A program made the position numbers and the translations under genes. From NCBI GenBank assembly GCA_050949565.1, contig JBMNFY010000010.1, forward strand, positions 32,001-96,000: a stretch of 64,000 nucleotides of DNA, written 5' to 3'. The notes beneath the pieces are model-generated. The model searched no databases. It had not been told where the DNA came from and saw only the letters and a list, made by a program, of their open reading frames with translations. This stretch comes from Kiritimatiellia bacterium (GTDB lineage: Bacteria; Verrucomicrobiota; Kiritimatiellia; RFP12; UBA1067). Shown here one piece after another: positions 19,859 through 60,300 of the stretch (position 1 is its first letter; each line of letters begins with the position of its first letter).

Positions 19859-19886
19859 TCAACAAGAGAGAAAGGATAAAAAATGA
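18573..19886 (+). CDS. Secreted hypothetical protein with two tandem ~190-aa domains (copy 2)
   Basis: Paralog of 17241-18527, offset by exactly 1332 bp including the RBS. Confidence 0.85.
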   Translation: MRIRCVFLTVLVLGMRVTSFGQYIGPTLSASLIPRVAPTTRPWYEPDDSLMSLNAGLSAELGFENADWMIRNMKDGLLGKEAPFASTLSGTREYITEISDALHRSGDSPEITNTLHQSLLTPNNLYRDIILHAYIMASPVPMAFLAETVVKEFPAGQRKAWYAAATEKALYGDSWEDCLIDRPSREVLRYSHFLNRVKALETDPECLRVIGSPFDPGREVFPTLAPGGGEGAGDGRVAPNAAARFIARIAPTSRPWYEADDSLQSVNAKLAHGKDGGMVGLIGAELLSQGTPFARTSEGTPEYVAELLGTLWRSGDSPEITNILHQALLAPTNHYREATFRAYVMASPVPMTVLAETVVKSFPLEERKAWYARSGSKMLNPYDPIIRSIDRPSRESLRYSHFLNRVKVLDTDPDCLRIIGDPVDPKWECQQERKDKK

Positions 19887-20635
19887 TGACGATGCTGATG
19901 GGTGTTTTGCTGTGCTTTTTAGGCGCTTTTCATGCGTCTGCCGCTGTGGTGTCGCAATGCGAGACTGTCGCGGACAGAGTGCTCGTGAATGCGGATGGTC
20001 GTGTGCTGTCATGGATATCTTTGCGCGAAGGGGCGGCATGGAGCCCGGCCATCGCGGGGGCGACGTCTTGGGGATTGCCCGCGTTGGAAACGGAAGGGAT
20101 CACGTTCGATACGCTGGAAGCCCCGGCCTCGCCGTTCTGCTCCAGTGCCATTCCGGTTTCGACGCTCTTCATCGTAGCGTGTCCGGCAGAATCATCCAAT
20201 CACTTTGCCGCACTTGTCGAGGCCCCCGGGGCGGCTGTGACAGTGGCTGCCCGTGCTTTGCCGCTGACCTACGACCCCGAGGATGCCGAAGGGCTTTCCG
20301 TATGCGTCAACGGTCAACCGGTGTGGACGTTTCCCGACGGGCGGCATATCGTGGAGGTTGATTTCGCGCAGGCCGTGCCCGGCTGCGACCTTCGGATAGG
20401 CGGGGTCTCGGCATGCGCTTCATGGCGGCAATCGTGGCGCGGCCACATATCGGAGGTTGTCGCGTTTGACACGCCGCCCGATGAGACTGTCCGCCGGACT
20501 GTCCGAAGCTATCTCGCCCGCCGCCACGGTGTCGCGGGATACTTCCCGCCGCCCGGACCCGAGGCCGTTCTGCAGGCCATGTCGCTCGGCCTGTATACGC
20601 ACGCCCTTTTCTCAACGCAGTTGTTCATGCGATAA
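19883..20635 (+). CDS. Secreted LamG/concanavalin-like single-domain protein
   Basis: Signal peptide, WRGHISEVVAFD...VRSYLARRHG motif also seen in 25421-29884; ends STQLFMR. Confidence 0.75.
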   Translation: MMTMLMGVLLCFLGAFHASAAVVSQCETVADRVLVNADGRVLSWISLREGAAWSPAIAGATSWGLPALETEGITFDTLEAPASPFCSSAIPVSTLFIVACPAESSNHFAALVEAPGAAVTVAARALPLTYDPEDAEGLSVCVNGQPVWTFPDGRHIVEVDFAQAVPGCDLRIGGVSACASWRQSWRGHISEVVAFDTPPDETVRRTVRSYLARRHGVAGYFPPPGPEAVLQAMSLGLYTHALFSTQLFMR

Positions 20636-20774
20636 GTCACGTCTGCCACGTACTGTTTTTATTGGACTTTGTGATGCGTATAGGCGGTGCTCAACCCCGC
20701 AATTTTTCAACTTTCAACGCTCAACGTTCAAACGATGTGGTATAGTACCGGAACTGATGAAAGGGAAGACCGCT

Positions 20775-21251
20775 ATGGCTGCTCAAAAAAAACGTGTTGA
20801 TCCCCGTCCGGATTGGGATACCTATTTCATGGCGATTGCTGAAGTGGCGGCGACGCGCGCCAACTGTTCGCGGCGCAAGGTCGCGGCGATCGTCGTGTCC
20901 GAGAACCGTATCATTTCGACGGGATACAACGGCACGCCGCGTGGGGTTAAGAACTGCTTCGAAGGCGGTTGCCCGCGTTGTGCGGGTAGTGCGCCGTCGG
21001 GCAGCAGCCTCGAAGAGTGCATCTGCGTCCATGCGGAACAGAATGCCATCTGTCAGGCGGCGTATCACGGCATTGCCTTGGCGGGCGCGACGATCTATGT
21101 GACGATCAGCCCTTGTCTGACGTGTGCCAAGATGATCATCAACGCGGGCATCCGCGAGGTGGTCTACGGCGGCGACTATGCCTTTACGGAGCAGACCGAG
21201 CGGTTGCTGAAAGAGGCGAAGGTAACGTGCCGCCGCTTTGTGAAGCCGTAG
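20775..21251 (+). CDS. dCMP deaminase (ComEB-like)
   Basis: RPDWDTYFM, STGYNGTP, HAEQNA and PCLTC zinc motifs; start reassigned to 20775. Confidence 0.95.
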   Translation: MAAQKKRVDPRPDWDTYFMAIAEVAATRANCSRRKVAAIVVSENRIISTGYNGTPRGVKNCFEGGCPRCAGSAPSGSSLEECICVHAEQNAICQAAYHGIALAGATIYVTISPCLTCAKMIINAGIREVVYGGDYAFTEQTERLLKEAKVTCRRFVKP

Positions 21252-24200
21252 CGGGCCAGACCGTCAGCCTGAAGAATCGGCGCGGGTAGGTGGCCTGCTC
21301 TTCGTGCGGGATCTCCAGCGTCCATAAATAACCGTCGCCGGTGTCTTCACAGCGCAGGTAGCGGCCGTCGGTGTTGTACCACTCAAGCAGATCCTCGGAC
21401 TCTTGGAGCGACGCCCAAGCATCGGGGCGATCGTATGCCTGATAGTAGGAGACGCTCACGCCTGAACCGTCTATCGCAAACCCTTGTATGGCGGAGCGTC
21501 CTTCGTCGGTGGGGTCCAGCGGGTCGGCACCGGTGTAGTACTCAACCAGATTCGGCACGCCGTCGCCGTCGGCGTCGCCTTCGAGCGAGGTGAGGCCGCG
21601 CAATCCGAGCCATTCTGAGTATCCGCCGCGCCCCGGCGTCGGCACGCCCGCCTGCCAGCGGCTGGGCGCGAACGGCACAAAGTCCGCGCGGTTGAGCGAG
21701 TCGCCGCCGCCATCTGCGGAACGGGGCCAATCGCCGCGCGTGCCGTACGTGATCGTATCCAGCGTGCGCCCTCGCGCATCAAGCAACGTGACCGTTTCGC
21801 CGCTGTCGGAGAGTCCGCCGTAGATCCAGTAGGCGGCAGGCGTGACCGCGTTGCCGTAACGGTGCCGGAAAGCCTCTTCGTGACGGGCGACGACCGCATG
21901 TTCGCCGGGCTTGAGGATGGGGCCGTCCAAGACAAGCTCGTGCGCGGGCTGGCCTTGCGGGAAGCGGCACCCCGCGAGGCTGATGTCGCAGTCGGCGAGG
22001 TTGACCAGCTCAACGAACTCGTAACACCGGGCGATCCATTCCGATTGCGGGGCGGTTGCGTTGACGTGCGGATGATAGTGGATCTCGTTGATCAGGATAT
22101 CGCCGGGACGGGCACGGCGGCCGCCCAGCAGATATTCCGCCCGTGCGGCGAGGCTCCAGGTTTGGCGCGTGCTGCTGTAGGCGCGGGCGAAAAGTTCGGC
22201 GGAGGCGGTGAGTTGCACCGACATGCCGGGGCGGCAGACGTGCGCCTGCGGGGCCGGAAGATTGTTCCAGAGCGCGGGGTCACTGCCGTCCAGCGTGTAG
22301 TAGATGAGGTCGCCTTCGGGCGCGGTCAGCGTCACGGTCAGCGGTTCACCGGGCGGCAGGATGCAACTCGCCGGATTGAGCAGCGGCGGCGCGTGCAACA
22401 GGGAGCACTTCTGCGTGAAGTTTTGGTCGATCCACGTCGCGTGGTTGGTGGCGAACCAAGTCATCCACGCGACCTCGCCGGAGTGGGTACGGCCGAAAAC
22501 GTCATTGGTGGGCCACTGGTTCCACTTCACGTAATCACGAGTGGCCGCCGCTTCAGGAAGCTGCGCGTGCAGCCGGGCGACGGTGGCCGCCAGATTGGTG
22601 TTGGAGAAGGGGCCTTGGCGCAGTGCGAACCAGCGGTCCCAGTAGAGACGCTGGAAGGCGGGCTGGGCATGCAGGCGGCCCCAGAAATCGCTGCGGGTGA
22701 AGGGCTCCGGGGCGAAGGTCCATACGTCCCAGCGCTTGGAGTTGGGCCTGTCGGTGTACCCGTATGGCCCCAACGAACGGTCGAAGTCCCAGACCGGCCC
22801 GGCCATGATCTTACCGCTGCGGTCTTTGTGAAAATAGGAGCTGAGCGTGAAGATGTCTACATCCATCGAGTAGGCTTTCATGATGTGGAAATCGGTCCAC
22901 GATAGCAGGTCAATGTAACGGCCGACACCAGTCTCAGGGTGCATGGGGTCGGAGCCGTACACGGTGTTTTCAAAATCGTTGAAGGCATTGACGAGATAGA
23001 GGCTCTGCTCGGGTTGGACCACATCGAGCTTGGGCCGATCGAGGACCATGTAGCGTCCGGTGCTGTTGGGGAAGTTGCGTGCGGTGCGCCAGTAAAATTC
23101 GTCGGTGTCGGCGCGGTCCGCCTTGAAGAGATAGCTGCCGGAGAGCGCGGGCTGCGCCGTGTCGCCTGGCGTCACGATGTCATCGATCGGCAGACGGCCG
23201 TTACCGATGCGGATGCGCTCTTCCAAAACGTAGAGCCCGTGGTAGCGGGCAGCCGAGAGGTCGGTGGTTTCGTTGTTGATGAGGAAAAGCTCCACCCAAC
23301 GCGTGCGCGGGGCGTAACGGCCGAGTTGGCGCGAGAGATCGAACATGAAGGCATCGTGCATGTAGGTGCGGTCATAGTTCCAGCAACTGATCAAGGCGAA
23401 GTCCGAGCCGTCGGGAAAACCGTTGATGCTGGCCTTCTCGTCGTCGTCCTCCTCGCCCCAGAAGGTGAGCGCGTAAGGTTTTTTGGGGAAACCAGCGGAT
23501 GAGGACCCGCGCACATGGATGCCGACGCGGCGGGTCAGCGTGGCGGGACCGGTCAGCGCGGCACTGCCGTCGACGGGCTCGATCAGGTGAGCGGAACAGG
23601 CGGTGTAGATTGACGATTCGCTCGTGGGGATACCGTCACGGAGCGGATCGTTCTCGCGCAGCACGAGGATCGGCAGGCCGCTGGTGAAGGCCAGCGTGGC
23701 GGAGTCGGACGCATGGAAGGTGTACATGGCGGTCGATGGGTTGCCGCTGCGCCCGAGCGCGTCGAACACGCAGGCGCGGATGTGCAGGGAAGAGGAGACC
23801 GAGAGCGGCGCGCTGTAGAGGAGGCTGTTGTCCAGCGTGGGGACCGCGCCGTTGGTCGTGTAGCGGATGCTTTGGCCCGGTGCGCTGCCGCTCAGCGTCA
23901 GGGTGAAGGGCGTGGCGGTGATGCCGGGAGGGTGCGAGAAGGCGACTGTCTGCGGCAAGCGCAGGATCGTGGCATCGCCGTTCATGACGCCGGGCGTGGC
24001 TTGAATGAGGTAGGAGGGTTCGTTGGTGACGAAGAGCGTGCGGATGACGGCCTCCAACGAGGGCTTGAGAAAGAGGTCGCTGCTGGTCGCGTTACAGTTC
24101 ATGAGGTGGACGGCCAGCATGTTGACGCCGCCGGTCAGCAGATTGGTGCAGGCGGTGAGATTGAGCGCCGTGGCGGTGGCGGGGTTGTTCAGAATCGACG

Positions 24201-25035: not shown

Positions 25036-25062
25036 AGTATAGGCGATGTTCTGGCCGTTCGC

Positions 25063-25210
25063 CAAGTGTCGGCTTACGAAATCTGGAGTGCGGTGACAAG
25101 AGCCGCGCTGTGCGCGGGTCGCGGCACCGCTTTTGCGCACAGCCCTGCCGCCGTACTCCTGCTCAAAAAGCGGCGTCGCGCGGAATACCGCTTGCCGCCG
25201 CACTCCAAAT
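25063..25210. repeat. REP-like element family A, copy 2
   Basis: tggagtgcggtgacaagagccgcgc...ccgcttgccgccgcactccaaa. Confidence 0.85.
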
Positions 25211-25420
25211 CTTTTCGCCTGACTTGCGGGTGCCGAAATGGGCACAAACCACGCACTAAACTCGCATGACCCCTGTCACTAACCGCGATTCGCGTACCGC
25301 GTTCGGGGATAGACAGTTGCCCCCGATTGTGCGACACTGTTCTTACCTTGGGCGAGGGACGTTGGGGCGTCAGCCCCGTCGCTGTTGCATGAATGCGAAA
25401 TGGAAACGAGGTCTGTCAGG

Positions 25421-28400
25421 ATGCGTAAGCTGGTACTAGTTTCAAGTCTGTTGCTGATCCAATCGGCGGGTGCCTTTGCGCCCACCAATCTCCCGAACTG
25501 CGTGATCTGGCTGCAAGCCGGAAGTGACGATGTCCAGTTCAATCCCAACACCGGACGCGTCACGACGTGGCTCGACCGTTCCGGCAACAACAACCACGCT
25601 TATCAGACCGACACCAACCGCCAGCCGGTGTTTGTCTCAAGCGGCCTGAACGGTCTGCCGGCGTTACACTTTGACCAGCGCCTTTTCAATGACGCTTACG
25701 CGGCCGGTCTAGTGACCTCGAATGCGTTGAATGCCGCCTTTTCCGTGTTTACCGTGATGTGTGTCAGGGATGACAGCGGACGCGGGATCGCCTGGCGCAG
25801 GTTCGTGGGGTCGCTCGATAAAAACTGGCTTCTCGGAACCTACAGTGACGGCTCTTTTTACGCGCATGCCGACACCAGCGAATTGAGCGGCATTGCGGCG
25901 CGGCTACGCGCGCCTTACCAATTCGGGCGCACGTACACGCTGTCGGCGGTCAACACGACGAGCGAACAACGCTTCTACGTGAACGGGTATGACCTTACGG
26001 GTAATTCAAGTCTTACCACGTCGCCGGGTCGGCTGACGATCGGAGGCTGCGCGCGCAATGCGGCAGATCCGAGCGATGTCGTGATTGCCGAAGTGATCGT
26101 TTACGAGCGCGCCCTTTCCGCTGCCGAGCGCGATCAGGTTGAAGCCTACCTAAAGGAGCGCTACGCGGTGTCGGACGCGGGTTTCGACGGGTCCGTGTGG
26201 AGCGGCTTTGGCAGCAGTAACCTCTGGAGCGACAACGCCAACTGGCACCAGTCCCTTCCTGCCCGGCCGATGCTGGCCTTTGAAACCAACATCCAGTCAA
26301 CGTCTGTGAACGACCTGCCCGGACTCACGGTGGACAGCATCATGGTGTGGAACCGTAACATCTCGGCATCGGGCAACCCCATCACTCTGGAGAACAATTT
26401 CTTCTGCTTCCCGCAGTCTACCGTTAACTGGGCGCTGGACACCATCTTGCCCGACGGTCAGCACACCTTCTCGGTGCGCGGCAACCGCCGCCTCAACTTC
26501 TCCGGTCGTCTCTCCGGCACAGGCGGGATCTGTCTGGGGACGGGAGCCCTGTACGATGGCACGCTCGCCCTGCTCTGCCCGACAAACAGCTTCACCGGTC
26601 CGGTCCACATCCAAACCGGCATCGCCGAAATCTCCCGGTTGGCACCGGCCGGCACGTCCAGTTCGCTGGGAGCGGCGACTGGTGCGGACGCCACCATGCA
26701 TCTCGGCAACGTCCGCTACAACATCGTGGGCGGCGTGCGCTACACCGGTACGGCATCGGCGACCACCGACCGCGATTTCCGCTTCATGCGCAACGTGGCC
26801 ATCCTCAACGGCAGCCCCACGGACGCAGCCCTTGCTTTCAGTGGCACAATGTGCCCTGTTGACGAGCCGCGCGCGGGCCTGGCGACGCTGGAACTAGGCG
26901 GAACCTCGCGTGGTACCAATCTCATCGCATCGACCCTCAGCGACTCCCCGTTGGGCCAAAACCATCTCGCGGTTACCGTCAAGGGCGGCGTCTGGCGCTT
27001 TAACCAGTCCAACACCTTTACCGGGGGGTTCACGCTGGAAGGCGGCACGGTGTTCCTGACAGGCACCGGCGGGCTCGGGCAAGGCCCCGTTCGCGTCAGG
27101 ACCGGCGCCACGCTCGGCGGCAACGGGGTCGCCACCTCAGCCAGCGCGATCCTCCAGTATGAAGGCGCCATCATCTCGCCCGGCGATCCCGACGAAAACG
27201 GCGGTATCGGTTGCCTCACCTACGATATTGGAGCGGGACTCTCCGGCGTACGGCTCGTCATACAGACCACCCTGCAGACCAATGACAGCATCCGTGTCAA
27301 TGCCACCCTCCCGTTGCCTGCCTTCCTGACGGTGGAAGTCCAGGCGGCTTCCGCCGCCGACTGCCCCGAATCCCTGCGCATCATCGATGCGACCGCGCTG
27401 ATCGGCGCGCAGGATCTTTCCGCATGGGAGATCATCGCCCCCTGCGCCTATCGTGCCGTGCGCGAGGGCTCGTCGGTGCTGCTTGTCAAGGAGCCCGCCT
27501 TTTCTGCCGATGCCTGGCAATACAACATGAAGATCCGCTTTCCGGGGTACACCGGCACCTCCGTCCTAACCAATTTCCCCGTCCTGATCAAACTGACAGA
27601 GGGCACGGGCAACCGGTTCCACTACGGTGAGTGCGATCCGAACGGCGCCGACCTGCTCTTCACCGACGCAGACGGCACGCGCTTGCAGCACGAGATCGAG
27701 CGCTGGGAGATCAACGGCGAGTCTTGCGTGTGGGTCAAACTGCCGCGCCTGACGCGGGGCACAGAGATCACCGCGCACTGGGGCAACCCCGCCTTTGCAC
27801 CGCTCAAGGCCACCTTCCAACCGATCGACTTGCCCGGCTGTGCGCTCTGGCTCGACGCGGCCGCGAGCTTTACGGCGGATGGTGCTTCCATCGCCACCTG
27901 GCCGGATCTTTCCGGAAACGACCGCCACGCTACGCAAAGCAATGCCGCCGCGCAGCCGCGCTGGGTAGCTAACGCCGTCAACGGCCTGCCCGCCGCGCGC
28001 TTTGAAGTGACGGGTACCATGGACGGCATGGTCACTGGATGGAACACCCAGGAGGATTCTGCCTACACCGTGATCGTCGCCGGCACGCACCGCAGGGAAG
28101 TCGACCCCGGCGATTCTTGGCGGCGCATTGTCAAGGGGTCTGCCGCCTATAACGCTTGCATCGCCGTGCGGATCGACAACACTTTTGAGGCAGGCACACG
28201 CGATGGCGATTATAAGTCCCTCGCAACATCGAGCACGCGCGCTACGCTCGGTGCTCCGTTTGTCGGCACGATCGTGGCCGACGGCACCCACTCCTACTTT
28301 GCGCTTAATGGCTTCGCCTTCCCGACGGTTGCCGTCGCGGGTGCGTTCGGCGACCTCGGGCTCGGGGCGAGCGGATTCGGCAACGACGGATGGGACGGTG

Positions 28401-29884
28401 ACATCCTGGAGGTCATCGCTTACGACCGTGCGCTCTCTCTCGCTGAGCGCCAGCAGGTGGAGCGCTATTTGGCAGAGAAATACGACGGGCTTTCTGCCCA
28501 CTTCGTGCCCGAGTTCGGGTTGCAACAATGGCTACGGGCCGACATGGTGAATGCCGATGTGCTGGACAACGGCGTGCCGCGCGTGTCCAGAGCGGACAAC
28601 CAAACTTCCGTATTTGGCATGCACGCCACGCAGGGTACGACCAATCGCATGCCTGAAAAAGTTGCGTCGGCCATCAACGGCAAGCCCGCGCTGCGCTTTG
28701 ACGCGGTGCCCGACCAGTATGACGCCCTCCGGAGTCCCGTCGCGCCGATCGGCGAGGCTTACACGGCCTTCGCTGTCTTCGCGCCGAACACCACCGGCCT
28801 GACGGAGCGTGTGATCATGCAGGGATACGGCGGCGTCAGCCGCCTCGGCATCACGAACGGCATTCTCATGCGCAGCGCCGGCGGTACCGTTTCGCAACTC
28901 CTGCCTTGCCCGCCCCATCAACCGCTGATCGCCACATTGCGCTGCAACGGACTCTCCTCCAGTTTCTACGTCAACGGCGTGAATCTCACGCAGAACGCTA
29001 CGCCGTCAGGCAACTGGGCCGGGAGTGGAGGTGTCGAAAACCGGGTGATCATTTTTGGCGCGGGTTACGGGGACGGCGCGCTCTTGCGGCCGATGGACGG
29101 TGACCTCGCCGAGGTCATGGTCTACAACCGTATCCTTTCCGATCACGAACGCCAGCGCGTGGAGGCCTACCTCGCGGACCGCTATGCAATTCCCATCAAC
29201 CGCAACAACGCACAGGTGTGGTCGGAGGGCTACACCGGCGTCTGGCACCTGACCGATACCTCGCGCCTGTTGCTCGCCGACGCTTCGCCCGCGCAGAACG
29301 GCGCGGTGCTGCTGGGCATCGACGAAGCGTACGCCGTTCCGGCATGGACCGCAGAAGGTCTGGCTTGGGATGCGGCGTCGCAGTTCGGCAGAAGCCGTAC
29401 CGCGCCAGTCACGCCGTCGACGCTCTCGTTCTGGGCGCTGCAAACCGAGTCGTCGGCGAACCTTGCCACGGTGATCGCCGGAACCTCCGGCGCGCCGTAC
29501 GTCGCGCTCAACAACGCCGCAGGTAAGCTCCGTGTCGCCGCTACGGACGCCGCGCCGCTGATCGGCGGCAGCGACGCCTGGACGCACTACACGGTTGTCG
29601 TGAATCCCGCCAGCCAGGCCGTGCAGGTTTACGGCAACGGTCTGCCGCTCGACACGGCACCGGGCGTGCAGGGGAGCGGGATGCCGACCGGGCAGGCGCT
29701 GACATTCGGGCACGATGCGAATACGTCCGACGTTTCGAAAACCTTTTCGGGCGCGTTGGATGAACTCCGTCTTTCGACGACCGCGCGGAACGCGGACTGG
29801 ATACGCGCTGCCTATCTGACGCAGGCAGAAAACGCTTCGTTCACCAGCTACCACCACTTCGGCACGTTCTTCATGTTGCGATAG
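25421..29884 (+). CDS. Giant secreted protein: LamG-like domains, autotransporter-associated strand repeats, DUF2341
   Basis: Signal peptide; three WL.A...W.D.SGN..HA.Q-type domains; NSFTG/NTFTGG repeats; LTNFPVLIKL...HEIERW; ends GTFFMLR. Confidence 0.85.
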   Translation: MRKLVLVSSLLLIQSAGAFAPTNLPNCVIWLQAGSDDVQFNPNTGRVTTWLDRSGNNNHAYQTDTNRQPVFVSSGLNGLPALHFDQRLFNDAYAAGLVTSNALNAAFSVFTVMCVRDDSGRGIAWRRFVGSLDKNWLLGTYSDGSFYAHADTSELSGIAARLRAPYQFGRTYTLSAVNTTSEQRFYVNGYDLTGNSSLTTSPGRLTIGGCARNAADPSDVVIAEVIVYERALSAAERDQVEAYLKERYAVSDAGFDGSVWSGFGSSNLWSDNANWHQSLPARPMLAFETNIQSTSVNDLPGLTVDSIMVWNRNISASGNPITLENNFFCFPQSTVNWALDTILPDGQHTFSVRGNRRLNFSGRLSGTGGICLGTGALYDGTLALLCPTNSFTGPVHIQTGIAEISRLAPAGTSSSLGAATGADATMHLGNVRYNIVGGVRYTGTASATTDRDFRFMRNVAILNGSPTDAALAFSGTMCPVDEPRAGLATLELGGTSRGTNLIASTLSDSPLGQNHLAVTVKGGVWRFNQSNTFTGGFTLEGGTVFLTGTGGLGQGPVRVRTGATLGGNGVATSASAILQYEGAIISPGDPDENGGIGCLTYDIGAGLSGVRLVIQTTLQTNDSIRVNATLPLPAFLTVEVQAASAADCPESLRIIDATALIGAQDLSAWEIIAPCAYRAVREGSSVLLVKEPAFSADAWQYNMKIRFPGYTGTSVLTNFPVLIKLTEGTGNRFHYGECDPNGADLLFTDADGTRLQHEIERWEINGESCVWVKLPRLTRGTEITAHWGNPAFAPLKATFQPIDLPGCALWLDAAASFTADGASIATWPDLSGNDRHATQSNAAAQPRWVANAVNGLPAARFEVTGTMDGMVTGWNTQEDSAYTVIVAGTHRREVDPGDSWRRIVKGSAAYNACIAVRIDNTFEAGTRDGDYKSLATSSTRATLGAPFVGTIVADGTHSYFALNGFAFPTVAVAGAFGDLGLGASGFGNDGWDGDILEVIAYDRALSLAERQQVERYLAEKYDGLSAHFVPEFGLQQWLRADMVNADVLDNGVPRVSRADNQTSVFGMHATQGTTNRMPEKVASAINGKPALRFDAVPDQYDALRSPVAPIGEAYTAFAVFAPNTTGLTERVIMQGYGGVSRLGITNGILMRSAGGTVSQLLPCPPHQPLIATLRCNGLSSSFYVNGVNLTQNATPSGNWAGSGGVENRVIIFGAGYGDGALLRPMDGDLAEVMVYNRILSDHERQRVEAYLADRYAIPINRNNAQVWSEGYTGVWHLTDTSRLLLADASPAQNGAVLLGIDEAYAVPAWTAEGLAWDAASQFGRSRTAPVTPSTLSFWALQTESSANLATVIAGTSGAPYVALNNAAGKLRVAATDAAPLIGGSDAWTHYTVVVNPASQAVQVYGNGLPLDTAPGVQGSGMPTGQALTFGHDANTSDVSKTFSGALDELRLSTTARNADWIRAAYLTQAENASFTSYHHFGTFFMLR

Positions 29885-29904: not shown

Positions 29905-30102
29905 TTGGTTGTTAGTGCCTTACGGCTCAACAAGCACGACGAATTCGAGGGGCATCAAGAGGGATACGGCGTGAAGGAAATCAAGGCACAGTTTCAGGGA
30001 GACCTGACGCTTTCGGGTGGGGTGGATCTTGCCGGTGACATCACCGTTGGCGAGAACGGCTGGATTGTTCCTTCTCCAGGGCTTTCCATTATCATCAGGT
30101 GA
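29905..30102 (+). pseudogene. Probable orphan C-terminal fragment ending PGLSIIIR
   Basis: No RBS or signal peptide; ends in the same terminal motif as neighbouring secreted proteins. Confidence 0.45.
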
Positions 30103-41752: not shown

Positions 41753-44700
41753 GTGAAAAGACATGCTAAACGGATGGTGTGGTGTGGTTGTGCGTTCATC
41801 GCCGTATGCGCGTTTTCGGCGCGGGCGGTGACCGGCGTCTGGACGAATGTCTCGGGGGGCTACTGGGCCGACGACGCGAACTGGCAGGGCGGCGTGGTGC
41901 CGTCTTCGTCGGGCGCGGAACCCGGCGCGGGGGATGTCGCGGACTTCACCGCGTTGCCCGTCGGTGAGACGGTGACGTTGACCAACTACACCGCCATCGG
42001 CAGCCTCTGGTTCTCGGGCTCGGCCGATGATCTCTGGACGGTGACCGGCGGCGGCCTGGGTCTCGCCAACGCGTCGGACTTTCTGGTGGAACGTTACGGT
42101 GAAATTCGGGTGAACGGGGGCACGCTGAATTTGGAGTCGCCGATCACCTCGTCCGGTGGTTACGGCGTGGCCAAGACCGGGGATGGCACGCTTCGGCTTT
42201 CGTCGAGGCACACCTACGGTGGGGCTATGCGCTTGAAAGCGGGGTGTCTGATGTTGACCAATGGCGCGGATCTGGCAGGCGCGGTGTTTGTGGAGGCTCC
42301 TGACGCCACGCTGCGACTTGAGGGCGACGCGCAGATCGGCGGTATCGAATCGCGGTGTATACCGCAGACGACGGTGGATCTGGGCGGGCATACGTTGTCG
42401 GTCGGGGGCGAGGCGAGCGTGAGAGTGTTTGACGGGTGTTTCACTAACGGTACGTTGCGTTTCACGCGCGGCAACGCGCTGGTCGTGACGGACGCGCAGC
42501 GTGTGTCATCAGTCAGGCTGGAGAATGGCAGTCTAGTGTGCGGGAACAGGGTGGATATCACCGGCTGGTGGCGCTTCGACGATGCGGCGCAGGTCGGCAG
42601 GGACTCCGGCCCGCGCGCCAACCATCTGACCACGCACGGCACGCAGGCGCAGTGGCTCGCCGACGATCCGGAGCGCGGCAGTGTGCTCGCGCTGGACGGT
42701 GCGGGAGCATGGCTCGTCGGTCCGAACGGCGGACAGATCGACGGCCTGCCGGTCTCTAACATGTCCTTTACGGTGGCCCTCTGGGTGAAGCCGGACGCGA
42801 GCGCAGCATCCTCAGCCGGGATATATGAGTGGGGGGTGGCAGGTTCTGCCCGGTAGTACAACATGCTCCGGCTCAACACGCCCTCCTCGGACAAGCCGCT
42901 GATGCACACCAACTGGGGCAACAACCATGAGATCCGTTACGCGCCGGGTCTGATGGATGGCGCGTGGCACCATGTGGCTGTCGTCTATCGCGACGGCTTC
43001 TTCCTCTACTATATCGACGGGGAGCCGATAGACAGCCGCTATGACGCTGCGCCGTTGCAAGTCGTGAACGGTAACTTCAAGGTGGGCAAAGGGTATTCTA
43101 ACGACAGTTTCAAAGGGTTGATCGATGATGTGTTTGTTGCGCGGGGCGCACTGTCTCACGGGCAGATCAGTGCATTGCGGCTGAGCGGGACATCGCCCGT
43201 CGAGAAAACGCTCGCCAATCTGCTGCTGGAGACGGCGGACGTCGAGATCGCATACAACGGAACCCTGAGCTTGACGGGCGACCAGGCGCTGAACACGTTG
43301 AGCGGCGCCGGCGCGGTGGGCGGTGTCGCGCTGCAAGACGGTGCGACACTGACCGTGACCGGAAGCGGCAGGCTGGACGGCGTGGTGACCGGTGACGGCC
43401 GGCTGGTCAAACGCGGCACAGAGTCGACACTCACGCTGGGCGGGCGGGTGGATGCCACCGGCACCGTCGAGATCGCCGAAGGTACGCTGGCGCTGGCTAA
43501 TCGTTATCCCGACGGTCTTCAGGCTCACTACCGTTTCGATGACGAGTCGAACCTCGGCAAGGACAGTAGCGGCAATGGTTATGACCTGACTGCGAGTAGC
43601 GCACCGGCCTTTGCGCCGGGGCTCTTCGGCGGCGCGGCCTCATTCACGGCGGCAGACAAGACCTATTTTTACGCGCAGACCTTCCCGGCCACGTTGCCGA
43701 CGGGGAACTCCTCCTACACGGTCGCGGCTTGGTGCAACCTCAAGGCGGGCGGCAACATACGCGGTATGCCGGTATATTGGGGTCGCGGTAACAATACCGA
43801 CAACGGCTCCGTGCTCTTCCGGTTCAACTCGACCACCGAGATCATGACCGCGAACATGGGGAACAACTGGACGGTGAAGGCAGGGTACGATTTGGCAAGC
43901 GATACGCCGGATGGTGGCTGGCATCATATCGTCTGTACCTACGATGCTGCGACGCACGAGCAGCGCGTTTACTTCAATGGAACTCGGGCTGCTCAACGGA
44001 CGATATGGGCAGACCTGACTGTAGGCGATAATACGTTCTGGCTGGGTGGCGCGCCGTACGGCACGACCAATTATTATGACGGTCTGCTTGATGAGGTGAT
44101 GATCTTCAACCGTGCGCTGGACGATGCCGAAGTCGCTGATGTGGCGACCGGCCTTTTCGCTGCGCCACGGGGATCGCGCCTGGCTGATCGCGTGGTGGCG
44201 CGTTATGATTTTGAAGACGCCGCGCAACTTGGAAAGGATTCCGGCCCCTACGGGTATCACCTCGAGCCGCAAGGCAGTGTCGCTGCCGCGGCCGGCAAGG
44301 TCGGGCAGGCGCTCTCGTTCAATACCAAGAATCAAGGGTACTTGACGTGGACCAACAGCGTCTTCCCGGAGGCGTTGCCGACCGGCAACGCGCCGGTCAC
44401 GATCACGGCGTGGATAAACCCGGTCGACAATCCTAACCCAAACGGCAGCGTTGTGTTTTGGGGAACGACGATTGACAACCGCAAGGGATGCCACATGCTG
44501 CGTCTGGCAGGGAACGCGGAAGGGCGGACCGTTTTCCGGTATGTAGATGGCGTGGCTTGGATCAGCGACGAGTCGTTGGTCTCCTTTGAGCGTGGCGACC
44601 GTGATGAGGGGTGGCATCACTTGGCGGCGGTGGTCGGGCCGGGCGGGCTGCGCTCGCTTTACGTCGACGGGGCGCTTGCTGCAAGGGGCCGCGTGAGCGG

Positions 44701-45487
44701 ACAGACCGTGGATCCCGGTAGCTTCTCGATCGGCTACAAACCTAATACATCATGGGCCTGGTTCCAAGGGATGATCGACGATGTGACGATCTATGATTGC
44801 GCCCTGTCGCGCGCCGAGATTCTGGAGACATTGCGTGGACGGCGCGACATTCTGCCGCCGGAGCGTACGGTCGAGGTGGCGGCCGGGGCGGCCCTTGATG
44901 TCGGCACGGCCGCGCAGCAGGTGAGCGGGCTCGGCGGCGCGGGCGAGGTGCGCATCGCGACGGACGGTGAACTGACGGTTGTCGGCGGCAGTACGACGTT
45001 CAGCGGTGTACTGGTCGGCACGGGTACGTTCGCGGTGCGCGATGGCGCGGAACAGACGCTGGCGGGCGATGGCACGTTTAGCGGCGCAATCACCGTTTCA
45101 AACGCCGCACTGCTGGTGGAGAGTGCGGCCACTGCGGCGGGTTGTGCGACGGTGGTGCAGGCTGGCGGGCGCATCGGCGGACGCGGCACGCTGGGCGGAA
45201 ATCTCTCAATTGAAAACGGCGGCGGGATCATGGCCGGGACGGCACCGGGTACGCTGACCGTGAACGGTGCGGTCACACTCGGCGCGGCAGGCATGGTGAC
45301 GCTGCCACCGGATTTCGAGGGCGGGCGGTTGACGCTGCTGGATGCTACGTCCGTCATCGCGCCGGACGGCGTGGCGGGATGGCAGGTCGAGCCGGCACAG
45401 CCGTCGACAGCCGTCGTGTTCCGCGCCAGCGAAACAACTTTCAGCGTGAGCGTGTTCCAGCAGGGCACGGTCTTCACAATACAATAA
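41753..45487 (+). CDS. Secreted multi-LamG protein with autotransporter-like strand repeats, interrupted by an in-frame TAG at 42854
   Basis: ORFs 41732-42856 and 42863-45487 share a frame and split one LamG domain; KTGDGTL repeats; ends GTVFTIQ. Confidence 0.8.
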
Positions 45488-46894: not shown

Positions 46895-46901
46895 GAGAAA
46901 C

Positions 46902-46997: not shown

Positions 46998-47007
46998 GAA
47001 AGGAAGG

Positions 47008-49611: not shown

Positions 49612-49683
49612 GTATGTTGCGGCGCATGTCGCGTGTCGAAAAATTTTTCCGCAGTGACGCGGAGCAAACATGGAGGGAAAACG

Positions 49684-51063: not shown

Positions 51064-51064
51064 C

Positions 51065-52354: not shown

Positions 52355-52428
52355 CGCTCAACGTTCAACCTCACGCCAAGGCTTTGTAGGCGCGAAATTT
52401 TATTTTTGACATGAGGCTCTTGCCCCCC

Positions 52429-52540
52429 GTGGCATGGGCGTCTCGTCCATGGGATAAACACGGGCAAGATGCCCGTGCCACACCCCGCGTGGCATGGGCG
52501 TCCCGCCCATGAAAAAGCAGCAAGGTTTTGCAAGAGCCTC
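52429..52540. repeat. REP-like family D cluster
   Basis: gtggcatgggcgtc..., cacgggcaagatgcccgtgccac, ggttttgcaagagcctc. Confidence 0.85.
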
Positions 52541-52648
52541 GGCATGATTAGCATGATACTGATTTCAGGCTCGAAATGCGGGGGGTGATCGTGTAATGTA
52601 ACACTTGTTTTCGTTATGTGAAGGCCCTGTGCTTAAGGAGATTTTCCG

Positions 52649-53686: not shown

Positions 53687-53765
53687 GCGCGGTGTCGAGT
53701 TGGGCGCTGCTCGGGTTTTTTATCCACAGATGGGCACAGATTTTTGGGGGCATTGCTCGGGTTTA

Positions 53766-54031
53766 TTTAACGCAGAGGCGCAGAGACGCAGAGGTTCTTT
53801 GGGGGCATTATTGCGACCACACAGTGGTCGCAATGATGAGTGTAAAAAAAACGGGCGGGAGGACGGGCACCGGGCGCGCACAGGCCATGCAATGGGGGGG
53901 GCGCGGGAAGACAGCCCAGAAAAGCGCTAAATCCTTCCGCTGTGCGGAAGGATGGTTTCAGGTTTCATTGCGGAGCGCCGGGAGGGGCAAGCGTCTGCTT
54001 GCCCGCAGACGAGCAGACGCTCGTCCCTCCC
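53766..54031. repeat. Composite intergenic repeat region (family C plus segments shared with 9268-9481 and 39724)
   Basis: ccttccgctgtgcggaaggatggtttcaggtttcattgcggagcgcc is identical to 9268; taacgcagaggcgcagagacgcagag. Confidence 0.85.
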
Positions 54032-54097
54032 CAGCGGCGCATGCGCCGTTCACGCCCGCAGTACCGGCAGTGCCCGCAGTAACCGATTACGTTCCCC

Positions 54098-57000
54098 TCA
54101 ACGCGCGTTCGTGCTGAAGCGATAGCAGCCGGAGCCGACACGGAAGGCCATGCGGTCGCGGTCTGACTGGATAGGGGGCACGTCAGCGGTCACGTTCTTC
54201 GCGTCGGGTTTGACCGGCAGATAGATGGTCGCTTCGGTATTGGCCGGGACCTCGACCTCCAGCGTGAACACGCCGTTTTCCCGCCGCCATTCACTGCGGA
54301 TGAGACCGTAGGGTGAGTCGTGCTCGGCCTTGACCCAGTCCAGGCCCGCCACCGGTTCCGGCGCGATGATGAAACGCTTGAAGGCTACCGCCTGCGGATC
54401 ATCGGTCACGGCGATGGTGGAGACGCTGTCGGCCAGACGGATGCCGCCGAGATATTGGTAAGACCAGGCGGAGAGGTCGCCGAACATGATGTGGTTGCGC
54501 GAGGAGCCTTCGTTCCAGTCTTCCCAGAAGGTGGTGGCGCCGCGCTTGATCCAGTTGCCGAAAGAGGGGTGCTCTTCTTGTGTGGCCATGGTGAAGGCGA
54601 GGTCGGTGCGGCCAGCTTTGCTCAGTGCACGAAACACATACTTCGAGCCAAGAATACCGAAATCCGGGAAGACGCGGGTCTTTTGCACGGCCTCGACCAG
54701 CCGCGCTTCGACGGCGGCGCGTTCAGCGTCCGGGACCAATCCTTGGTGCAGCGCGCAACTCTGCGCAGTCTGGCTGCCGATCGAGTAAACACCGTTGCCC
54801 TTGTAGAGGTGGCGCGTGTAAGCCTCGCGGATCGAACGCGCAAGTGCGGCGTATTTCTGGGCGTCGTCATGTTTGCCGAGCCGTTCGGCGACACGCGCCA
54901 CGATCTGCGCGTCGAGATAGTAGTAGCCTGTGGAGGTCACCTCGGTCGGCGTTTTGGTCTTGACCGGGATCCAGTCGCCGAGGCCGTGCGAGACGATTCC
55001 ATCCTTGGCACGGGAGGTCATGTAATCGACATACTTCGCCATGGCCGGATAGGCGGTTTCCAGTATACGGGTGTCGCCTTGGTAGACGTACAGCATCCAC
55101 GGAATAATAACGAGTGCGCTGTCCCAAGCCGGGCCGTTGCCCCAGTGGTAGCCCCAGCCACTGGTCGGCACGATGCCCGGCAGGTTGCCATCGGGGCGTT
55201 GCTCATCGATCAAGTCCTGAATCCATTTTTCATAGGCCGCCGTGTTCTGGAAGTTATACATCGCGAGTTCCGATGCCAGCGATGCATCGCCGGTCCAGCC
55301 ATTTTTTTCGCGGTGCGGGCAGTCGGTGGGGTACCCATTGACGAAGTTGCCGCGATAGGCCCAGAGAATGGCGTGCTGGAGCTTGTTCAACAACTCGTTC
55401 GAGCTGATGAAACGTCCGGCGTCTTTGAAATCGGTGTGAACTACACAGGCCTCGATATTCGAGGCATCTGGCGGCTGTGCCACTCCGGTGATCTGCACAT
55501 ATTGGAAACCATTATAGGTGAAGCGCGGCTCATACACCTGAGTACGGCTGCCGTCACACACGAAGCGGTCTGTCTGGAACCAGCCGTCCGGCAGCGTGCT
55601 GAACGACGCAGGATAACGGAAGTGTGCGTCGGTGCCTTTCAAACTGAGGCTGCCGTCTTCTTTGAGTTTTTCGCCGTACTTGATCGTGACCACGTCACCA
55701 GCGCGCTGTCCGGCGAGTTTGAGTTTGACCCAGCCTGCGGTATTCTGACCGAAGTCGACCAGCCACGTGCCGGGCGTGATCGCGCGTACAGCGACCGGCT
55801 TCAGGCGTTGCGTCACTACGCTCGGCGGCAGCGCGGAGGCGGTGAGACGTCCGGCGGGTGCGGGCACCACGTCAGCCCTTACGACCTGCTTTTCAAGGTT
55901 GGGCGCGCCTTTCGGTGCCTTGCCGATCACCTCGCCTTCGCGGATGCAGTCAAAGCCGATCGGGCTGGCGACCTGACGCCAGGTGTCATCGCTCACGACC
56001 ATCGTGCGCGTACCGTCGTCGTACGTAATTTCGAGTTGGGCCAGCATGCGCGGAAAATCGCGCCAGGGGGCATTGTCGAAGTTCCAGACGGCGACGCTGC
56101 GCACGTCGTACCAGCCGTGTCCCAGTAGCACATGCAGTCGGTTTTCGCCGCGCGCGAGCATCTCGGTCATGTCATAAGTGGAGTAGAGCACGCGCCGGTC
56201 GTAGCGGGTGGGGGCGGGGTCCAGCACCTTGCGGCCGATACGCTGCCCATTGAGACTCGCCTCGTAAAAGCCGAGGCCGGTGATGTGCAGCGTAGCCTCG
56301 CGCACCGGGCGAGTCACCGTGAAGCGTTTTTCAAAGGCGGGCGAGACAAGCTCTCTGCGCCGTTCGATCTTGCCCCAAGGCGCACCGTCCACCGGGCCGG
56401 CTATCACAGCGGCTTTCCATGCGTCATGCGCGAAACCATCGATCTTTTCTTTCCAGCCGTCCACTGCTTGCGCTGATGTGCTCCAGGTGGTGTCGGTCGG
56501 CACGGCCTTGCCGTCGGCGAATTTCAGTACGGCGAGCAGGGCGGTAGGCCCCGGCTCCTTGTTTTTGACGGTGACGGCGATCAGGTTGCGACCGGGCTTG
56601 ATCAAGTCTGCGACATCATGAAAGCGCATCCAGCGCCAATCGTTGAAGTGGCCCCAGGTTTTCGCGGCGATCTTGCCGTTGATGAACACCTCGTACTCGT
56701 CATCCGCCGTGAGCACCAGCTCTACCGGTGCGTCCTGCGCGCCGCGCGGTGCGTCGAACACCTTGCGGAAATGGCGGACGCCCTGTGCCGCTTGTCCCAG
56801 CGAAGGGGCGTCTCCGGTCCAGATCCATTGCGCACCGACCAGATCGCAATCCGGACGCGTGGCGGCGTTCGCACCGATCCAGCGTGCCTGCCAATCTGCA
56901 GGACGCATCACGCCCATGATCCAGCGTGCCTGCGCACTCCAGGCGGAGGGTGTATCACTCTGGTTATCCCACGCGCGCACTTTCCAGTAGCAGCGTTGCG

Positions 57001-57337
57001 AGGTCGTGAGCGGCTTGCCGGCATACACCACGTTCAGCGATTGGTCAGAAGCCACGCGTCCGCTGTCCCAGAGATCGCCTTGATTGTCGCGTAGCCGCTC
57101 CGGCGAGGAGGCCACCAGAATCTGGTAGGCGGTTTGGCGCAGGCCGCGCGCCGAGCGGCGTGCGGCGGTCAATTTCCAACTCAGGCGCGGGGCCGGGTGG
57201 TCGAGCCCCACGGGGTCCTGCAGGTAGTCGACCGTCAACGCCTGCGGAGCGGCGAGTGCGCCGCGCTGACCCCACGGTCTCTGTGCACAACCTGCGACGA
57301 GCACCAAACCCGCCAACATCCATGAAATCTGTTTCAT
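54098..57337 (-). CDS. GH78 alpha-L-rhamnosidase (probable lipoprotein)
   Basis: PRLSW...AYQI, LWDSG, DFGQN, PTDCPHREKNGWTGD, ATTFWE, SRNHIMFG; lipobox VAGC; start reassigned to 57337. Confidence 0.93.
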   Translation of the reverse strand: MKQISWMLAGLVLVAGCAQRPWGQRGALAAPQALTVDYLQDPVGLDHPAPRLSWKLTAARRSARGLRQTAYQILVASSPERLRDNQGDLWDSGRVASDQSLNVVYAGKPLTTSQRCYWKVRAWDNQSDTPSAWSAQARWIMGVMRPADWQARWIGANAATRPDCDLVGAQWIWTGDAPSLGQAAQGVRHFRKVFDAPRGAQDAPVELVLTADDEYEVFINGKIAAKTWGHFNDWRWMRFHDVADLIKPGRNLIAVTVKNKEPGPTALLAVLKFADGKAVPTDTTWSTSAQAVDGWKEKIDGFAHDAWKAAVIAGPVDGAPWGKIERRRELVSPAFEKRFTVTRPVREATLHITGLGFYEASLNGQRIGRKVLDPAPTRYDRRVLYSTYDMTEMLARGENRLHVLLGHGWYDVRSVAVWNFDNAPWRDFPRMLAQLEITYDDGTRTMVVSDDTWRQVASPIGFDCIREGEVIGKAPKGAPNLEKQVVRADVVPAPAGRLTASALPPSVVTQRLKPVAVRAITPGTWLVDFGQNTAGWVKLKLAGQRAGDVVTIKYGEKLKEDGSLSLKGTDAHFRYPASFSTLPDGWFQTDRFVCDGSRTQVYEPRFTYNGFQYVQITGVAQPPDASNIEACVVHTDFKDAGRFISSNELLNKLQHAILWAYRGNFVNGYPTDCPHREKNGWTGDASLASELAMYNFQNTAAYEKWIQDLIDEQRPDGNLPGIVPTSGWGYHWGNGPAWDSALVIIPWMLYVYQGDTRILETAYPAMAKYVDYMTSRAKDGIVSHGLGDWIPVKTKTPTEVTSTGYYYLDAQIVARVAERLGKHDDAQKYAALARSIREAYTRHLYKGNGVYSIGSQTAQSCALHQGLVPDAERAAVEARLVEAVQKTRVFPDFGILGSKYVFRALSKAGRTDLAFTMATQEEHPSFGNWIKRGATTFWEDWNEGSSRNHIMFGDLSAWSYQYLGGIRLADSVSTIAVTDDPQAVAFKRFIIAPEPVAGLDWVKAEHDSPYGLIRSEWRRENGVFTLEVEVPANTEATIYLPVKPDAKNVTADVPPIQSDRDRMAFRVGSGCYRFSTNAR

Positions 57338-57348
57338 CTTTTCTCCCC

Positions 57349-60300
57349 TCATTTCAACAGCAGGACGGTGCCGCCTTGCGAGGTGAGCCAAAGTTGGGTG
57401 CCGTTGTTGGCGACAATCAACTTGTATTTGGAGGGGAAGCCCGACAGCGTAGGTTTGGTGTTGATCGCGCCGGTCGCGATAATATACATCGGGGCGGTTG
57501 GCTCTGCGGAGGCGGCGTCCGCCGGCATGACGGTGAGGTTCGTGAGGTCCACCCCGTTGAAGGTGACGCAGGAGGAGGTCTCGCCGTCGATCTTCACGCG
57601 ATAGACACTGTCGGCCGCGAACGAGCCGTTCGCGACGGTGCCGTCGCCGGTGAGGGTGCCGATGGCGCACTCGCCGCCGCCGAGATCGAGCGTCGCGCCG
57701 GACGCCAAGTCGAAGGAATCGTCGGAATAATCGGCGGGCATGGATGTTGTCAGCAGCGAGCCGTCGCCGGGATCTGCCAGCATCGCGTAATCCTGCCAGG
57801 TCGTGGAGGCCGCGCCCACCTTGATGCCGATGGCCCAGGGGATCACGCCGCTCCACGGGCCGTCGCCGCCGCCGTTCTCGGTGAAGCGCAGCTCGATGGC
57901 GTGGGGACCGGGCGGGAGCGTCACCGTGCCGGTCATAGTTTTACACGAATCAGGCGGCAAAGATGACCACGTTGGTCCGGTCGATGACCAGCCGTCCGGC
58001 GTCATCATAATCCATCATGAACGACCAGGTCACATCTTGGCCGGTGCGGTTCCAGATGGCGCCGGTGTAGACGAGGGTGAAGGTGCTCGCCGTGCCCGGG
58101 GCTGCCGTACACGTTGGCCACGGAGGTGGCGAGGTCCACGGTGGTCGTGGCGGGCATGTCGACCCAGTTCTGTGTAGCCGCTCCACCTCGCCGAACAGGA
58201 GACCGGGCGTGAGAGTCGGAGCGGAGGGCGAGGGTCCCCGCCTCGACCTCCACGGCGGAGGAGGGCGTCTCGACGTAGCCGTTGAGCGTCGTGGTGAAGA
58301 AGGGCTCGGCCTCGGTGTAGATCTCCGGCATGCCGTTGCCGTAGGCGTAGGGGATGGCGAAGTTGGCGACCTCCGTGGAGTGGCGGCCCTGCAGGTCGAT
58401 GCCGAAGCCGCTGCCGGGAATGACGCTTCCGCCTGCGGCACCGGTATGCTGGCCGAAGCGCAGCTCAAAGGCGTGCGGGCCGGGCGTGACGGGTACGGTG
58501 ACGATGCGGGTGGCCGTGTCGTTGAGGCGGCCCGAGAGGACCGTCTGCCCGTCGATGACGATCAGACAGGAGTCGTCGAGGTTCTGGATGAAGGTCCAGT
58601 TCTTGGGTTTCGCCCGAACGGTTCCAGACGTAGCCGGAGTAGACGGCGGAGGAGTAGTTCCACCAGACATAGCCGTTCGGAAGAGTGGCGGACTGGTCGT
58701 TGCCGTCCGGGACGTTAATAAAGCCGTTGGCGGCGCGGGGGGTGAGTTGGACACCGCCGTCGCAGGGGTTGGGTTCTACGGAGTTGCCGCAACCGCCGAC
58801 CGTGCCCTCGAAGAGGCCGGGTTGGCCGGGCTGGGCGTTGCGGGCGGCTTCGGCGGCGTCCCAGTTGACGGATGAGGTGGTGAGGATCGAGCCGTCGCCG
58901 GGATCGGAAACAACGCGCCAGCCCATGCCGTCGCCGGGATCCCAGTTGAGGCCGCTGTTCAGCATGCCGCTGACATTGCAGCCGACGTTGCCCCAGCCGT
59001 CACCGAAGCGCGCATCGAAGTAGTGCGGGCCGGGGGTGGCAGTGAAGGAGCCGGGGGTGGCGGTGTTGCCGTTACGGTAAAGAACCAACGAACGGTCGAT
59101 GACCAGATAAACGTAATCATCGAACGCGCCGCGGAAGTTCCAGACCTGATTGGTGGCGGTGCGGTTCCAGATGCAACCGGCGTAGGCGTAGGTGTGATTG
59201 TTGCCGGCCCACATGCCGCCCGAGTTACTCGTGTTGACGGAGTTGCCATTGTTGGCGGCATAGGTGGTGAGGCGGACATTCTGCTTGGGCACATAGCGGA
59301 ACGGATCGTTGGCCGTGCGCGAAGTGAGCCCCTCCCAGAGGCCCGGCGTGAGCGCGTCAAGGGCCGGGGCGGACGGTTCGGGACGACGGGCGTGGCCGCG
59401 AGCGTGGCCGTGGAGGCACCTGTCTTGATGATCGATGCGGCACTGAGCGTGCCGTTGATGACCGCGCCGCCATCGCCGATTGTCAGGGAGGCGACCTGAA
59501 TGTCGCGACCGCAGAGGTCGAGGCATGCGGGTGCGCCGGTGCCCCCGACCGTGACGGCGGTTGCGGTAGAGAGGGCGTCGTCGTGCCCCAGGGCCAACGT
59601 GCCTTCGCGCACGACGGTCGGCCCGGTATAGGTGTTGGCGGCGTTAAAGGTGACACTCCCGCCGCCGGTTTTGGTAAAGCCGCCGGAGACGGCCGGCTTG
59701 ACGGACAGGGTCACATCGACATCGGCGCGGCCGGCCTGGCGCAGGGTCGCGACCGGTTGCGGGCTCATGCCGCTGCCGGGCGCATGGAACTTGAGACCGG
59801 TGACGGCACCAGAAGGACGGTCAAAGAGTGCCTCCGCAACGTAGCCGTTGTGGCCGTCCGGGCCGTTGTATTTATTGATGACGATCGGCGGAGCGATGTA
59901 GTCGGTGTAGGGCGTGGCGAACGTCATGTCGGCGGCGATCAGCCCGGTCGGAGCGCGCAGGGGGACATCGACAGTCTTACTGATGGAAGCCGGGATTTCC
60001 AACGTGAAGCCGCCTTCGTGGATGACGACGTTGTGGCCGGCAAGCGTCCCGTCGAAGACTTGGAATTCGGAGTTCGTGCAGACGAGGGTGCCGCCGTTGA
60101 AGCTGACGCCTTTCCTGCCGGGATTGTCGGCGGCATGGATGCGGTTCGCCGTGAGACGCCCGTTGCCGGCGAGCACGAGGTCGGAAAGGCGGTTTCGGGC
60201 ATTGGCATCACTGTAGCGCCGCCCGAGGTCAATGGGCCCGTTGACCGTGGCGTCCGCCTCGCCGGCGACGACGAGCGCGCCGGAGCCGGTGTTGGAGCCG

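Follow-up and report, generated by a model that had tools for sequence, protein, structure and literature searches.

Why do five open reading frames (ORFs) in one stretch of a Kiritimatiellia bacterium genome end in almost the same few residues, and what reads that ending? The stretch, called the window below, is 64,000 nucleotides long (contig JBMNFY010000010.1 of assembly GCA_050949565.1, positions 32,001 to 96,000, numbered here from its first letter). The initial annotation, made from the letters alone, had taken the five C-termini for a short terminal β-strand signal on barrel-less, autotransporter-like proteins, and all five were found where it had placed them. The analysis reported here identifies them as window members of a tail that is a real, strictly terminal signal, apparently undescribed, and that very probably serves as a recognition or sorting tag. 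A literature search, with subscription journals and supplements largely outside its reach, found no description of it.

Genes were called genome-wide with a hexamer-based caller (3233 genes), and a nine-column matrix trained on the gene ends of this genome converged on 86 members. Their consensus is [P/S/A]-x-G-[T/S/L/M]-Φ-Φ-x-Φ-[R/K/Q]-stop, and the tail proper comprises the last seven residues, G-[T/S/L/M]-Φ-Φ-x-Φ-[R/K/Q]-stop. Gly stands at position −7 in 85 of the 86 members, and the last residue is Arg, Lys or Gln in 80. With leave-one-out scoring, 84 of the 3233 called genes score at least 7 at the C-terminus, compared with only 0–4 of 3006 genes when the matrix is shifted by 1–50 residues from the stop and 275 of 1,241,310 internal windows, which excludes chance as the source of the tails. 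The corresponding DNA pattern (motif plus stop) has 77 matches in the genome versus 6 for the reversed pattern, and internal copies of the motif are scattered without a scaffold pattern. The tail codons are diverse at each position and all three stop codons are used, indicating that the constraint acts on the protein and not on a DNA repeat. Overlapping contigs contribute a few duplicates to the set, and two or three members are probably false, so about 80 is a fair figure for the carriers.

The five window tails and the genes that bear them are the following.

19883..20635, plus strand: LamG/ConA-like secreted protein of 250 residues with the variant tail FSTQLFMR (fold match, family alignment)
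20612..20635, plus strand: variant tail STQLFMR and stop, Ser in place of Gly (leave-one-out score −1.1)
25421..29884, plus strand: intact LamG/PATR/DUF2341 secreted protein of 1487 residues ending FGTFFMLR (domain match and matrix score)
29861..29884, plus strand: tail GTFFMLR and stop (leave-one-out score 13.9)
29905..30102, plus strand: short ORF (43–65 residues) ending PGLSIIIR, no signal peptide
30079..30102, plus strand: tail GLSIIIR and stop (leave-one-out score 10.8)
41753..45487, plus strand: PATR/LamG secreted protein of 1244 residues ending QGTVFTIQ, interrupted by a TAG at 42854-42856 (homolog comparison)
45464..45487, plus strand: tail GTVFTIQ and stop (leave-one-out score 17.1)
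57349..63948, minus strand: PATR secreted protein of about 2200 residues, split into pieces, ending GGTVLLLK (Illumina contigs and homolog)
57349..57372, minus strand: tail GTVLLLK and stop (leave-one-out score 17.3), modelled as coil that is not part of the folded domain

Every other called gene in the window scores −9 or lower. The seven-residue consensus fits four of the five. It corrects the pattern first proposed for these ends (a small residue, T/L, a hydrophobic strand and R/K/Q), since the true consensus has Gly at −7, which FSTQLFMR lacks. In the family of the 250-residue protein, 14 of 16 members end F-[SA]-T-x-Φ-Φ-[LM]-[KR] and two paralogs end GSVLLLK, so FSTQLFMR is a conserved Ser variant. 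Homologs of the 25421..29884 protein keep the tail in 28 of 30 cases (score of at least 5), as do 41 of 47 homologs of the terminal region of the 57349 gene. The ORF ending at 30102 has no paralog in the genome. The beta-helix gene downstream of it is preceded in 6 of 24 other loci by a long tail-bearing ORF of at least 200 residues, so the short ORF is probably what remains of the 3′ part of a longer gene that bore the tail.

The PATR passenger repeats noted in three window genes were confirmed. Signal peptides had been assigned to four of the five proteins, which holds only after the split genes ending at 45487 and 57349 are rejoined and not for the single ORFs; the 30102 ORF has none. The ORF ending at 45487 continues the gene starting at 41753 across one TAG, where homolog P0001 has Gln; this TAG is not among the 40 differences listed, of 170, in a comparison with Illumina contigs. 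The 57349 gene begins at 63948 and is collinear with homolog P0016 (2197 residues). Relative to the Illumina contigs it carries extra bases at 57953, 58602/3, 59380, 60373/60405 and 61178, and because contigs of independent Illumina runs do not have them, its frameshifts are assembly insertions. Insertions of one or two bases are frequent in this assembly and break up long genes; in the stretch tested, the Illumina contigs were free of them. An RNA run (X15) covers the window region and cannot demonstrate transcription.

The tail is attached to diverse proteins. The 120 residues upstream of it fall into 36 single-linkage clusters among the 86 carriers (the largest of 25 and 14), and several carriers have Pro-rich linkers before the tail. 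Pfam domains in the 20 of 86 carriers scanned include LamG, PATR, beta-helix, a PQQ-type propeller, subtilase (S8), NPCBM and Ig-like domains. Among PATR-like ORFs, 26 of 44 end in the tail and most others end in frameshift-like nonsense. A signal-peptide heuristic applied to the 86 carriers picks out 31 from the ORF itself and another 28 when a piece upstream is included, leaving 27 that are negative or lie at a contig end; the heuristic is crude, with 20% false positives on P-loop proteins, and some of the upstream links are wrong. By eye, full-length homologs mostly show leaders. The tail could have been refuted as a sorting signal by an equal presence on cytoplasmic proteins, and none of the 132 P-loop proteins has it. 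The cytoplasmic enzymes of the window are free of it, as the annotation had observed, and the leader-bearing GH10, amylase and rhamnosidase proteins of the window lack it as well; the tail therefore marks a subset of exported proteins.

We compared homologs to see what replaces the tail. The terminal region of the 45487 protein was compared with 14 homologs, of which six end in the tail, five in PEP-CTERM, two in an autotransporter barrel and one in a domain that looks dockerin-like by eye. This exchange was seen for that one terminal region, and a second homolog search gave only tail-type relatives. Judged from sequence comparison, the tail can sit on different folds and trade places with other modules for export or anchoring. 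Two predicted structures bear on whether it folds back as the last strand of the neighboring domain. In an AlphaFold2 model of the last 120 residues of the 57349 protein, a confident domain has its last strand at residues 106–110 and the tail is coil (pLDDT 62); the model of the 250-residue protein shows the tail as a short helix, of low confidence and apart from the sheets. The tail thus lies outside the fold in both models. The domain before the 57349 tail weakly resembles autotransporter autochaperone regions (E 0.13–0.97), and Foldseek returned nothing for it at E ≤ 0.001.

The belief that the tail belongs to no named family withstood the searches made here: 21 tails had no NCBIfam match and only three single weak Pfam rows, no curated Pfam or NCBIfam family of a described sorting domain was matched, and an atlas search assigned neither the tail (score 0.77) nor a 199-residue tail-bearing protein discussed below to a named family. 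The absence of a C-terminal barrel, a PEP-CTERM tail and a type IX secretion system (T9SS)-like C-terminal domain was likewise borne out, with no transmembrane helix in the 86 tails, no TIGR04183 match and no autotransporter barrel in the genome. One close resemblance is to PEP-CTERM/exosortase (TIGR02595, PF07589, PF09721), which shares the C-terminal position, many copies per genome, diverse signal-peptide proteins, a basic end and the same place in homologous passengers. The tail differs in having no Pro-Glu-Pro signature (in the consensus columns and in the 21 tails without an NCBIfam match), one basic residue and not a basic cluster, and no transmembrane helix: none of 86 reaches a mean hydropathy of 1.6 over 19 residues, and the longest hydrophobic run is 5. 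The defining features of PEP-CTERM that the tail fails are those given in PMC1569441. Exosortase was detected in 55 of 60 genomes, but in none of five tail-rich genomes of family f7 (91–93% complete), and it was rejected as the tail reader by this distribution. These five genomes (G221, G320, G323, G432 and G446) have at most one PEP-CTERM pattern match each, unlike the other 55 tested.

GlyGly-CTERM/rhombosortase and MYXO-CTERM/myxosortase substrates also carry C-terminal signals and reach the surface by way of a type II secretion system (T2SS), but their signals are membrane-spanning and cleaved, whereas seven residues cannot span a membrane. The GlyGly-, MYXO-, JDVT-, Synerg- and CGP-CTERM signals and LPXTG all combine a signature with a transmembrane segment (and an invariant Cys in four of them), whereas the tail has no membrane segment and no model match. 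T9SS substrates are very large surface proteins with a Sec signal and a portable address at the C-terminus, as tail carriers appear to be, but that address is a folded domain of 70–80 residues. No TIGR04183 match was found on 14 window proteins, the sequences upstream of the tail are mutually unrelated, and PorV was not found in the genome. The BamA β-signal and type Va autotransporters share a terminal β-strand, PATR passengers and an autochaperone-like last domain; the tail proteins differ in having neither a barrel nor a terminal aromatic residue (0/86). Two-partner secretion and Slam gave no TpsB or Slam match in a genome with a single Omp85 match, although both controls were silent. The tail would add a membrane-free type to the C-terminal sorting signals.

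The same DNA pattern is in clear excess in many relatives of this genome. Among 151 genomes of the class, 15 are significantly tail-positive by the strict Gly pattern, which overlooks variant tails (families f1, f2, f7, f20, f24, f25 and f82); a looser DNA pattern for Pro-variant tails was too noisy to inform (54 genomes). By eye, there is no comparable excess outside the class. Five genomes there with some excess were searched again, and all 20 matches inspected were very short or shadow frames without similarity to genome proteins. Among the matches listed for low-count genomes of families f11, f12 and f15, most were chance matches outside real gene ends. On these counts the tail appears restricted to part of the class Kiritimatiellia, the only place where it was found.

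Given that the tail was proposed to be read by a dedicated outer-membrane translocon or anchoring enzyme, we searched the genome, which is 92% complete and of whose envelope proteome only a small part is annotated, for a candidate. Omp85 gave one match. Searches found no autotransporter barrel, TamB or GspC; PorV was not found, with a working control. Searches for SprA, ShlB (TpsB) and Slam were without match, but the controls of all three were also silent. Barrel screens with crude filters gave only familiar-looking small barrels and TonB-type receptors, and no new translocon. No neighbor gene is conserved beside the tail genes of this genome. Five secretin loci were found, one of them within a full operon gspEFGHIJKLMD (C4:32264-45073). 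The T2SS secretin was found in 149 of the 151 genomes of the class, and the 15 tail-positive ones are all among them. GspC was not detected in any of 21 T2SS loci (C4:32264-45073 and loci L041–L060), and the gene set is the same, without a GspC-like gene, in 10 tail-positive and 10 tail-negative loci, with no extra T2SS gene on the tail-positive side. A dedicated reader is so far unsupported by this inventory (one Omp85; no TamB, autotransporter barrel, PorV or extra T2SS gene; no exosortase in five of five f7 genomes), and the tail may instead be read by a secretin machine of general use.

Because barrel-based routes were not found in the genome, the T2SS is the most economical channel. The explanation that we favor, tentatively, is that the tail is a free recognition strand marking Sec-exported proteins for passage from periplasm to surface through a T2SS without detectable GspC. 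In this mechanism, the signal peptide would carry the protein across the inner membrane, where it would fold, and the Gly turn would keep the tail clear of the last domain. The Φ-Φ-x-Φ segment would then pair as a β-strand with the edge strand of a receptor, with the terminal Arg, Lys or Gln and the carboxylate setting the register. The putative receptor would lie within the class-wide T2SS (gspEFGHIJKLMD), for example the edge strand of the secretin N0 domain or the pseudopilus tip. In proteobacteria the N0 edge strand is occupied by GspC or GspB. Substrates recognised by the T2SS (GspC HR/PDZ, GspD N0) would share with the tail proteins their folded periplasmic state, and the operon is complete in tail-bearing genomes. 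GlyGly-CTERM and MYXO-CTERM proteins need the T2SS to reach the surface (10.1101/2023.06.07.544157), and N0 of the secretin binds HR domains by β-strand addition (PMC9239104). Finally, where a variable enzyme domain occupies the C-terminus of a large protein, that protein would borrow the tag from a small tail-bearing neighbor.

The last step concerns the region upstream of the variant tail and similar cassettes elsewhere in the genome, where the following features were found.

14472..17210, plus strand: TSP3-repeat protein of 912 residues with a C-terminal HEIGH motif and no tail, from a polymorphic-toxin-like paralog family (domain match, paralogs)
17217..19886, plus strand: two tandem near-duplicate secreted genes between the 912-residue protein and the variant-tail gene
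14472-20635 in the window, and C13:5642, C17:98296, C1:10651, C10:254779, C17:1106586 and C17:1937018 on contigs of the genome: polymorphic-toxin-like cassettes

In these repeated cassettes, a large TSP3-repeat protein with a two-segment hydrophobic leader and a variable, often HEXXH, domain at its C-terminus is accompanied by orphan C-terminal pieces and by immunity-like genes in tandem. From their position, the genes at 17217..19886 would be immunity-like. None of the 18 large TSP3 proteins in the genome has a tail, and five have an adjacent small gene with the tail or its variant (a sixth neighbor looks like chance). Three small families adjoin such large tail-less genes. In that of the 250-residue protein, the small/large arrangement is kept in three of five other loci, and the other two are cut by contig ends. 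The 199-residue family occurs in 11 of 66 genomes, all in families f1, f2 and f5. Across its 29 loci there are 24 complete ORFs, of which 20 end Φ-x-Φ-[RKQ], and a large-protein homolog lies directly downstream in 16 of 29, four of these being near-identical copies in one genome. The arrangement hints that small tail-bearing neighbors tag large proteins in trans, which would make them adaptors; the 250-residue protein is a candidate for such a partner to the large protein without a tail that lies upstream of it. The full proposal, a graftable seven-residue linear signal for a GspC-less T2SS that docks on the secretin or pseudopilus tip, with small tagged adaptors exporting untagged polymorphic effectors in trans, strikes us as rather doubtful in all its parts together. 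Three immunity-like proteins (C17:1104436, C14:45182 and C15:120556) end in a hydrophobic segment and a basic cluster with no PEP motif and are possibly plain membrane anchors.

Several observations weigh against the T2SS explanation. Counted on single ORFs, tail ORFs show no signal-peptide enrichment (30/1034 versus 52/1879), and only with upstream pieces are 59 of the 86 carriers positive; we attribute the missing enrichment to the fragmented assembly, which splits many genes. The low AlphaFold confidence in the tail is weak evidence that it would be free, and several large TSP3 proteins have no tail-bearing neighbor. T2SS substrates are described as having no universal linear signal (PMC12369372). 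The presence of the T2SS does not discriminate, since its genes are the same in tail-negative genomes. A second secretin, about 1000–1100 residues long, also occurs in nearly all of 60 genomes tested. Columns of GspJ, GspK and GspD do separate the tail-positive and tail-negative groups; these are confounded by ancestry, because the tail label changes only twice across a GspD tree covering 21 genomes.

An anchor or docking tag is the alternative that survives best, and we consider it unlikely. Here the exit step would ignore the tail. Once outside the cell, the tail would complete a β-sheet of an S-layer protein or surface scaffold, or an enzyme would couple it to a glycan or lipid, so that it would act as a minimal form of dockerin or a helix-less PEP-CTERM. 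Such a role would suit a tail that stands in place of PEP-CTERM and a dockerin-like domain in homologs, whose P-x-G-T-Φ-Φ segment resembles the start of PEP-CTERM, and whose carriers resemble lectins and adhesins, proteins that have to be retained. PEP-CTERM matches are also few in the 15 tail-positive genomes (median 2, maximum 8) against the other 136 (median 7.5, up to 139), but across 44 families the anticorrelation is modest (Spearman −0.38) and reflects very few independent events, given the two label changes on the GspD tree. The absence of exosortase from the tail-rich f7 genomes and of a conserved neighbor gene in this genome speaks against it, as does the lack of a conserved Cys or Lys handle (Cys lies within the last 12 residues in 5 of 86 tails).

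Quite unlikely, in our estimate, is that another channel reads the tail as an export signal, be it a PilQ-like secretin system (C17:1466-1473 kb), BamA or some outer-membrane protein that went unrecognised. BamA is known to read C-terminal strands, the secretin of about 1000–1100 residues is nearly universal in the genomes tested, and the sparse annotation of the envelope proteome would leave room for such a protein. Set against this are the lack of any aromatic terminal residue, the single Omp85 without TamB, and barrel screens that, crude as they were, turned up nothing unfamiliar. A further secretin (C18) was rejected as the reader by its distribution, which is patchy among tail-rich genomes.

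A periplasmic signal for quality control or processing that has nothing to do with localisation, bound for example by a chaperone, a C-terminal protease or a protein of the PDZ or TPR type, is very improbable. It would account for the strict dependence on a free C-terminus, but classical PDZ ligands end in hydrophobic residues, unlike the terminal Arg, Lys or Gln here, and the tail is exchanged with export modules in homologs and absent from leader-bearing glycosidases of the window. That the tail is the structural last strand of its adjacent domain, spread by domain shuffling, is hardly credible and already largely refuted: 39 of 86 carriers fall in two upstream clusters, and the variable Gly of the 199-residue family could suit a strand belonging to the fold, but the tail is common to 36 clusters and unrelated folds, Pro-rich linkers set it apart in several proteins, and both models place it outside the sheet.

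Whatever reads the tail, it predicts a surface proteome of about 80 proteins here, several of more than 2000 residues, in a group of abundant, mostly uncultured polysaccharide degraders of digesters and the gut. How the T2SS chooses its substrates is a long-standing question, and if the T2SS explanation is true, a portable seven-residue tag would make it directly testable. To our knowledge, the tail would then be without precedent as a general linear T2SS signal and shorter than any other bacterial outer-membrane export tag. It could also find use as a very small tag for secretion or display.

A second C-terminal class was noticed alongside the tail. In 46 ORFs, [FY][FYH][RK][LVIA] is matched no more than 10 residues from the stop, in most after a similar short domain, and the window gene at 21184-25245 ends in a related sequence. 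The last strand of this class has the same Φ-Φ-x-Φ pattern, and the class may use the same route as the tail.

Some further features were recorded. A 91-residue protein (C17:821905-822168) comprises little beyond a signal peptide, 60 residues and the tail, and lies directly upstream of tail-less secreted genes. Between the two giant tail genes of the window, positions 45509-57319 hold leader-bearing glycosidases (two GH10, a GH5/CBM, an alpha-amylase and a rhamnosidase) and a SurA-like peptidyl-prolyl isomerase, an arrangement that resembles a polysaccharide-use locus. A DUF481 outer-membrane barrel at 355-1359 (minus strand) is among the few barrels seen in the genome. Short intergenic repeats near 46950, 52460-52500 and 53710-54040 belong to a high-copy family, as contig depth there is 30–150 times that of the flanks. 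The sole Rfam match in the window is one tRNA gene at 36274-36346 (plus strand).

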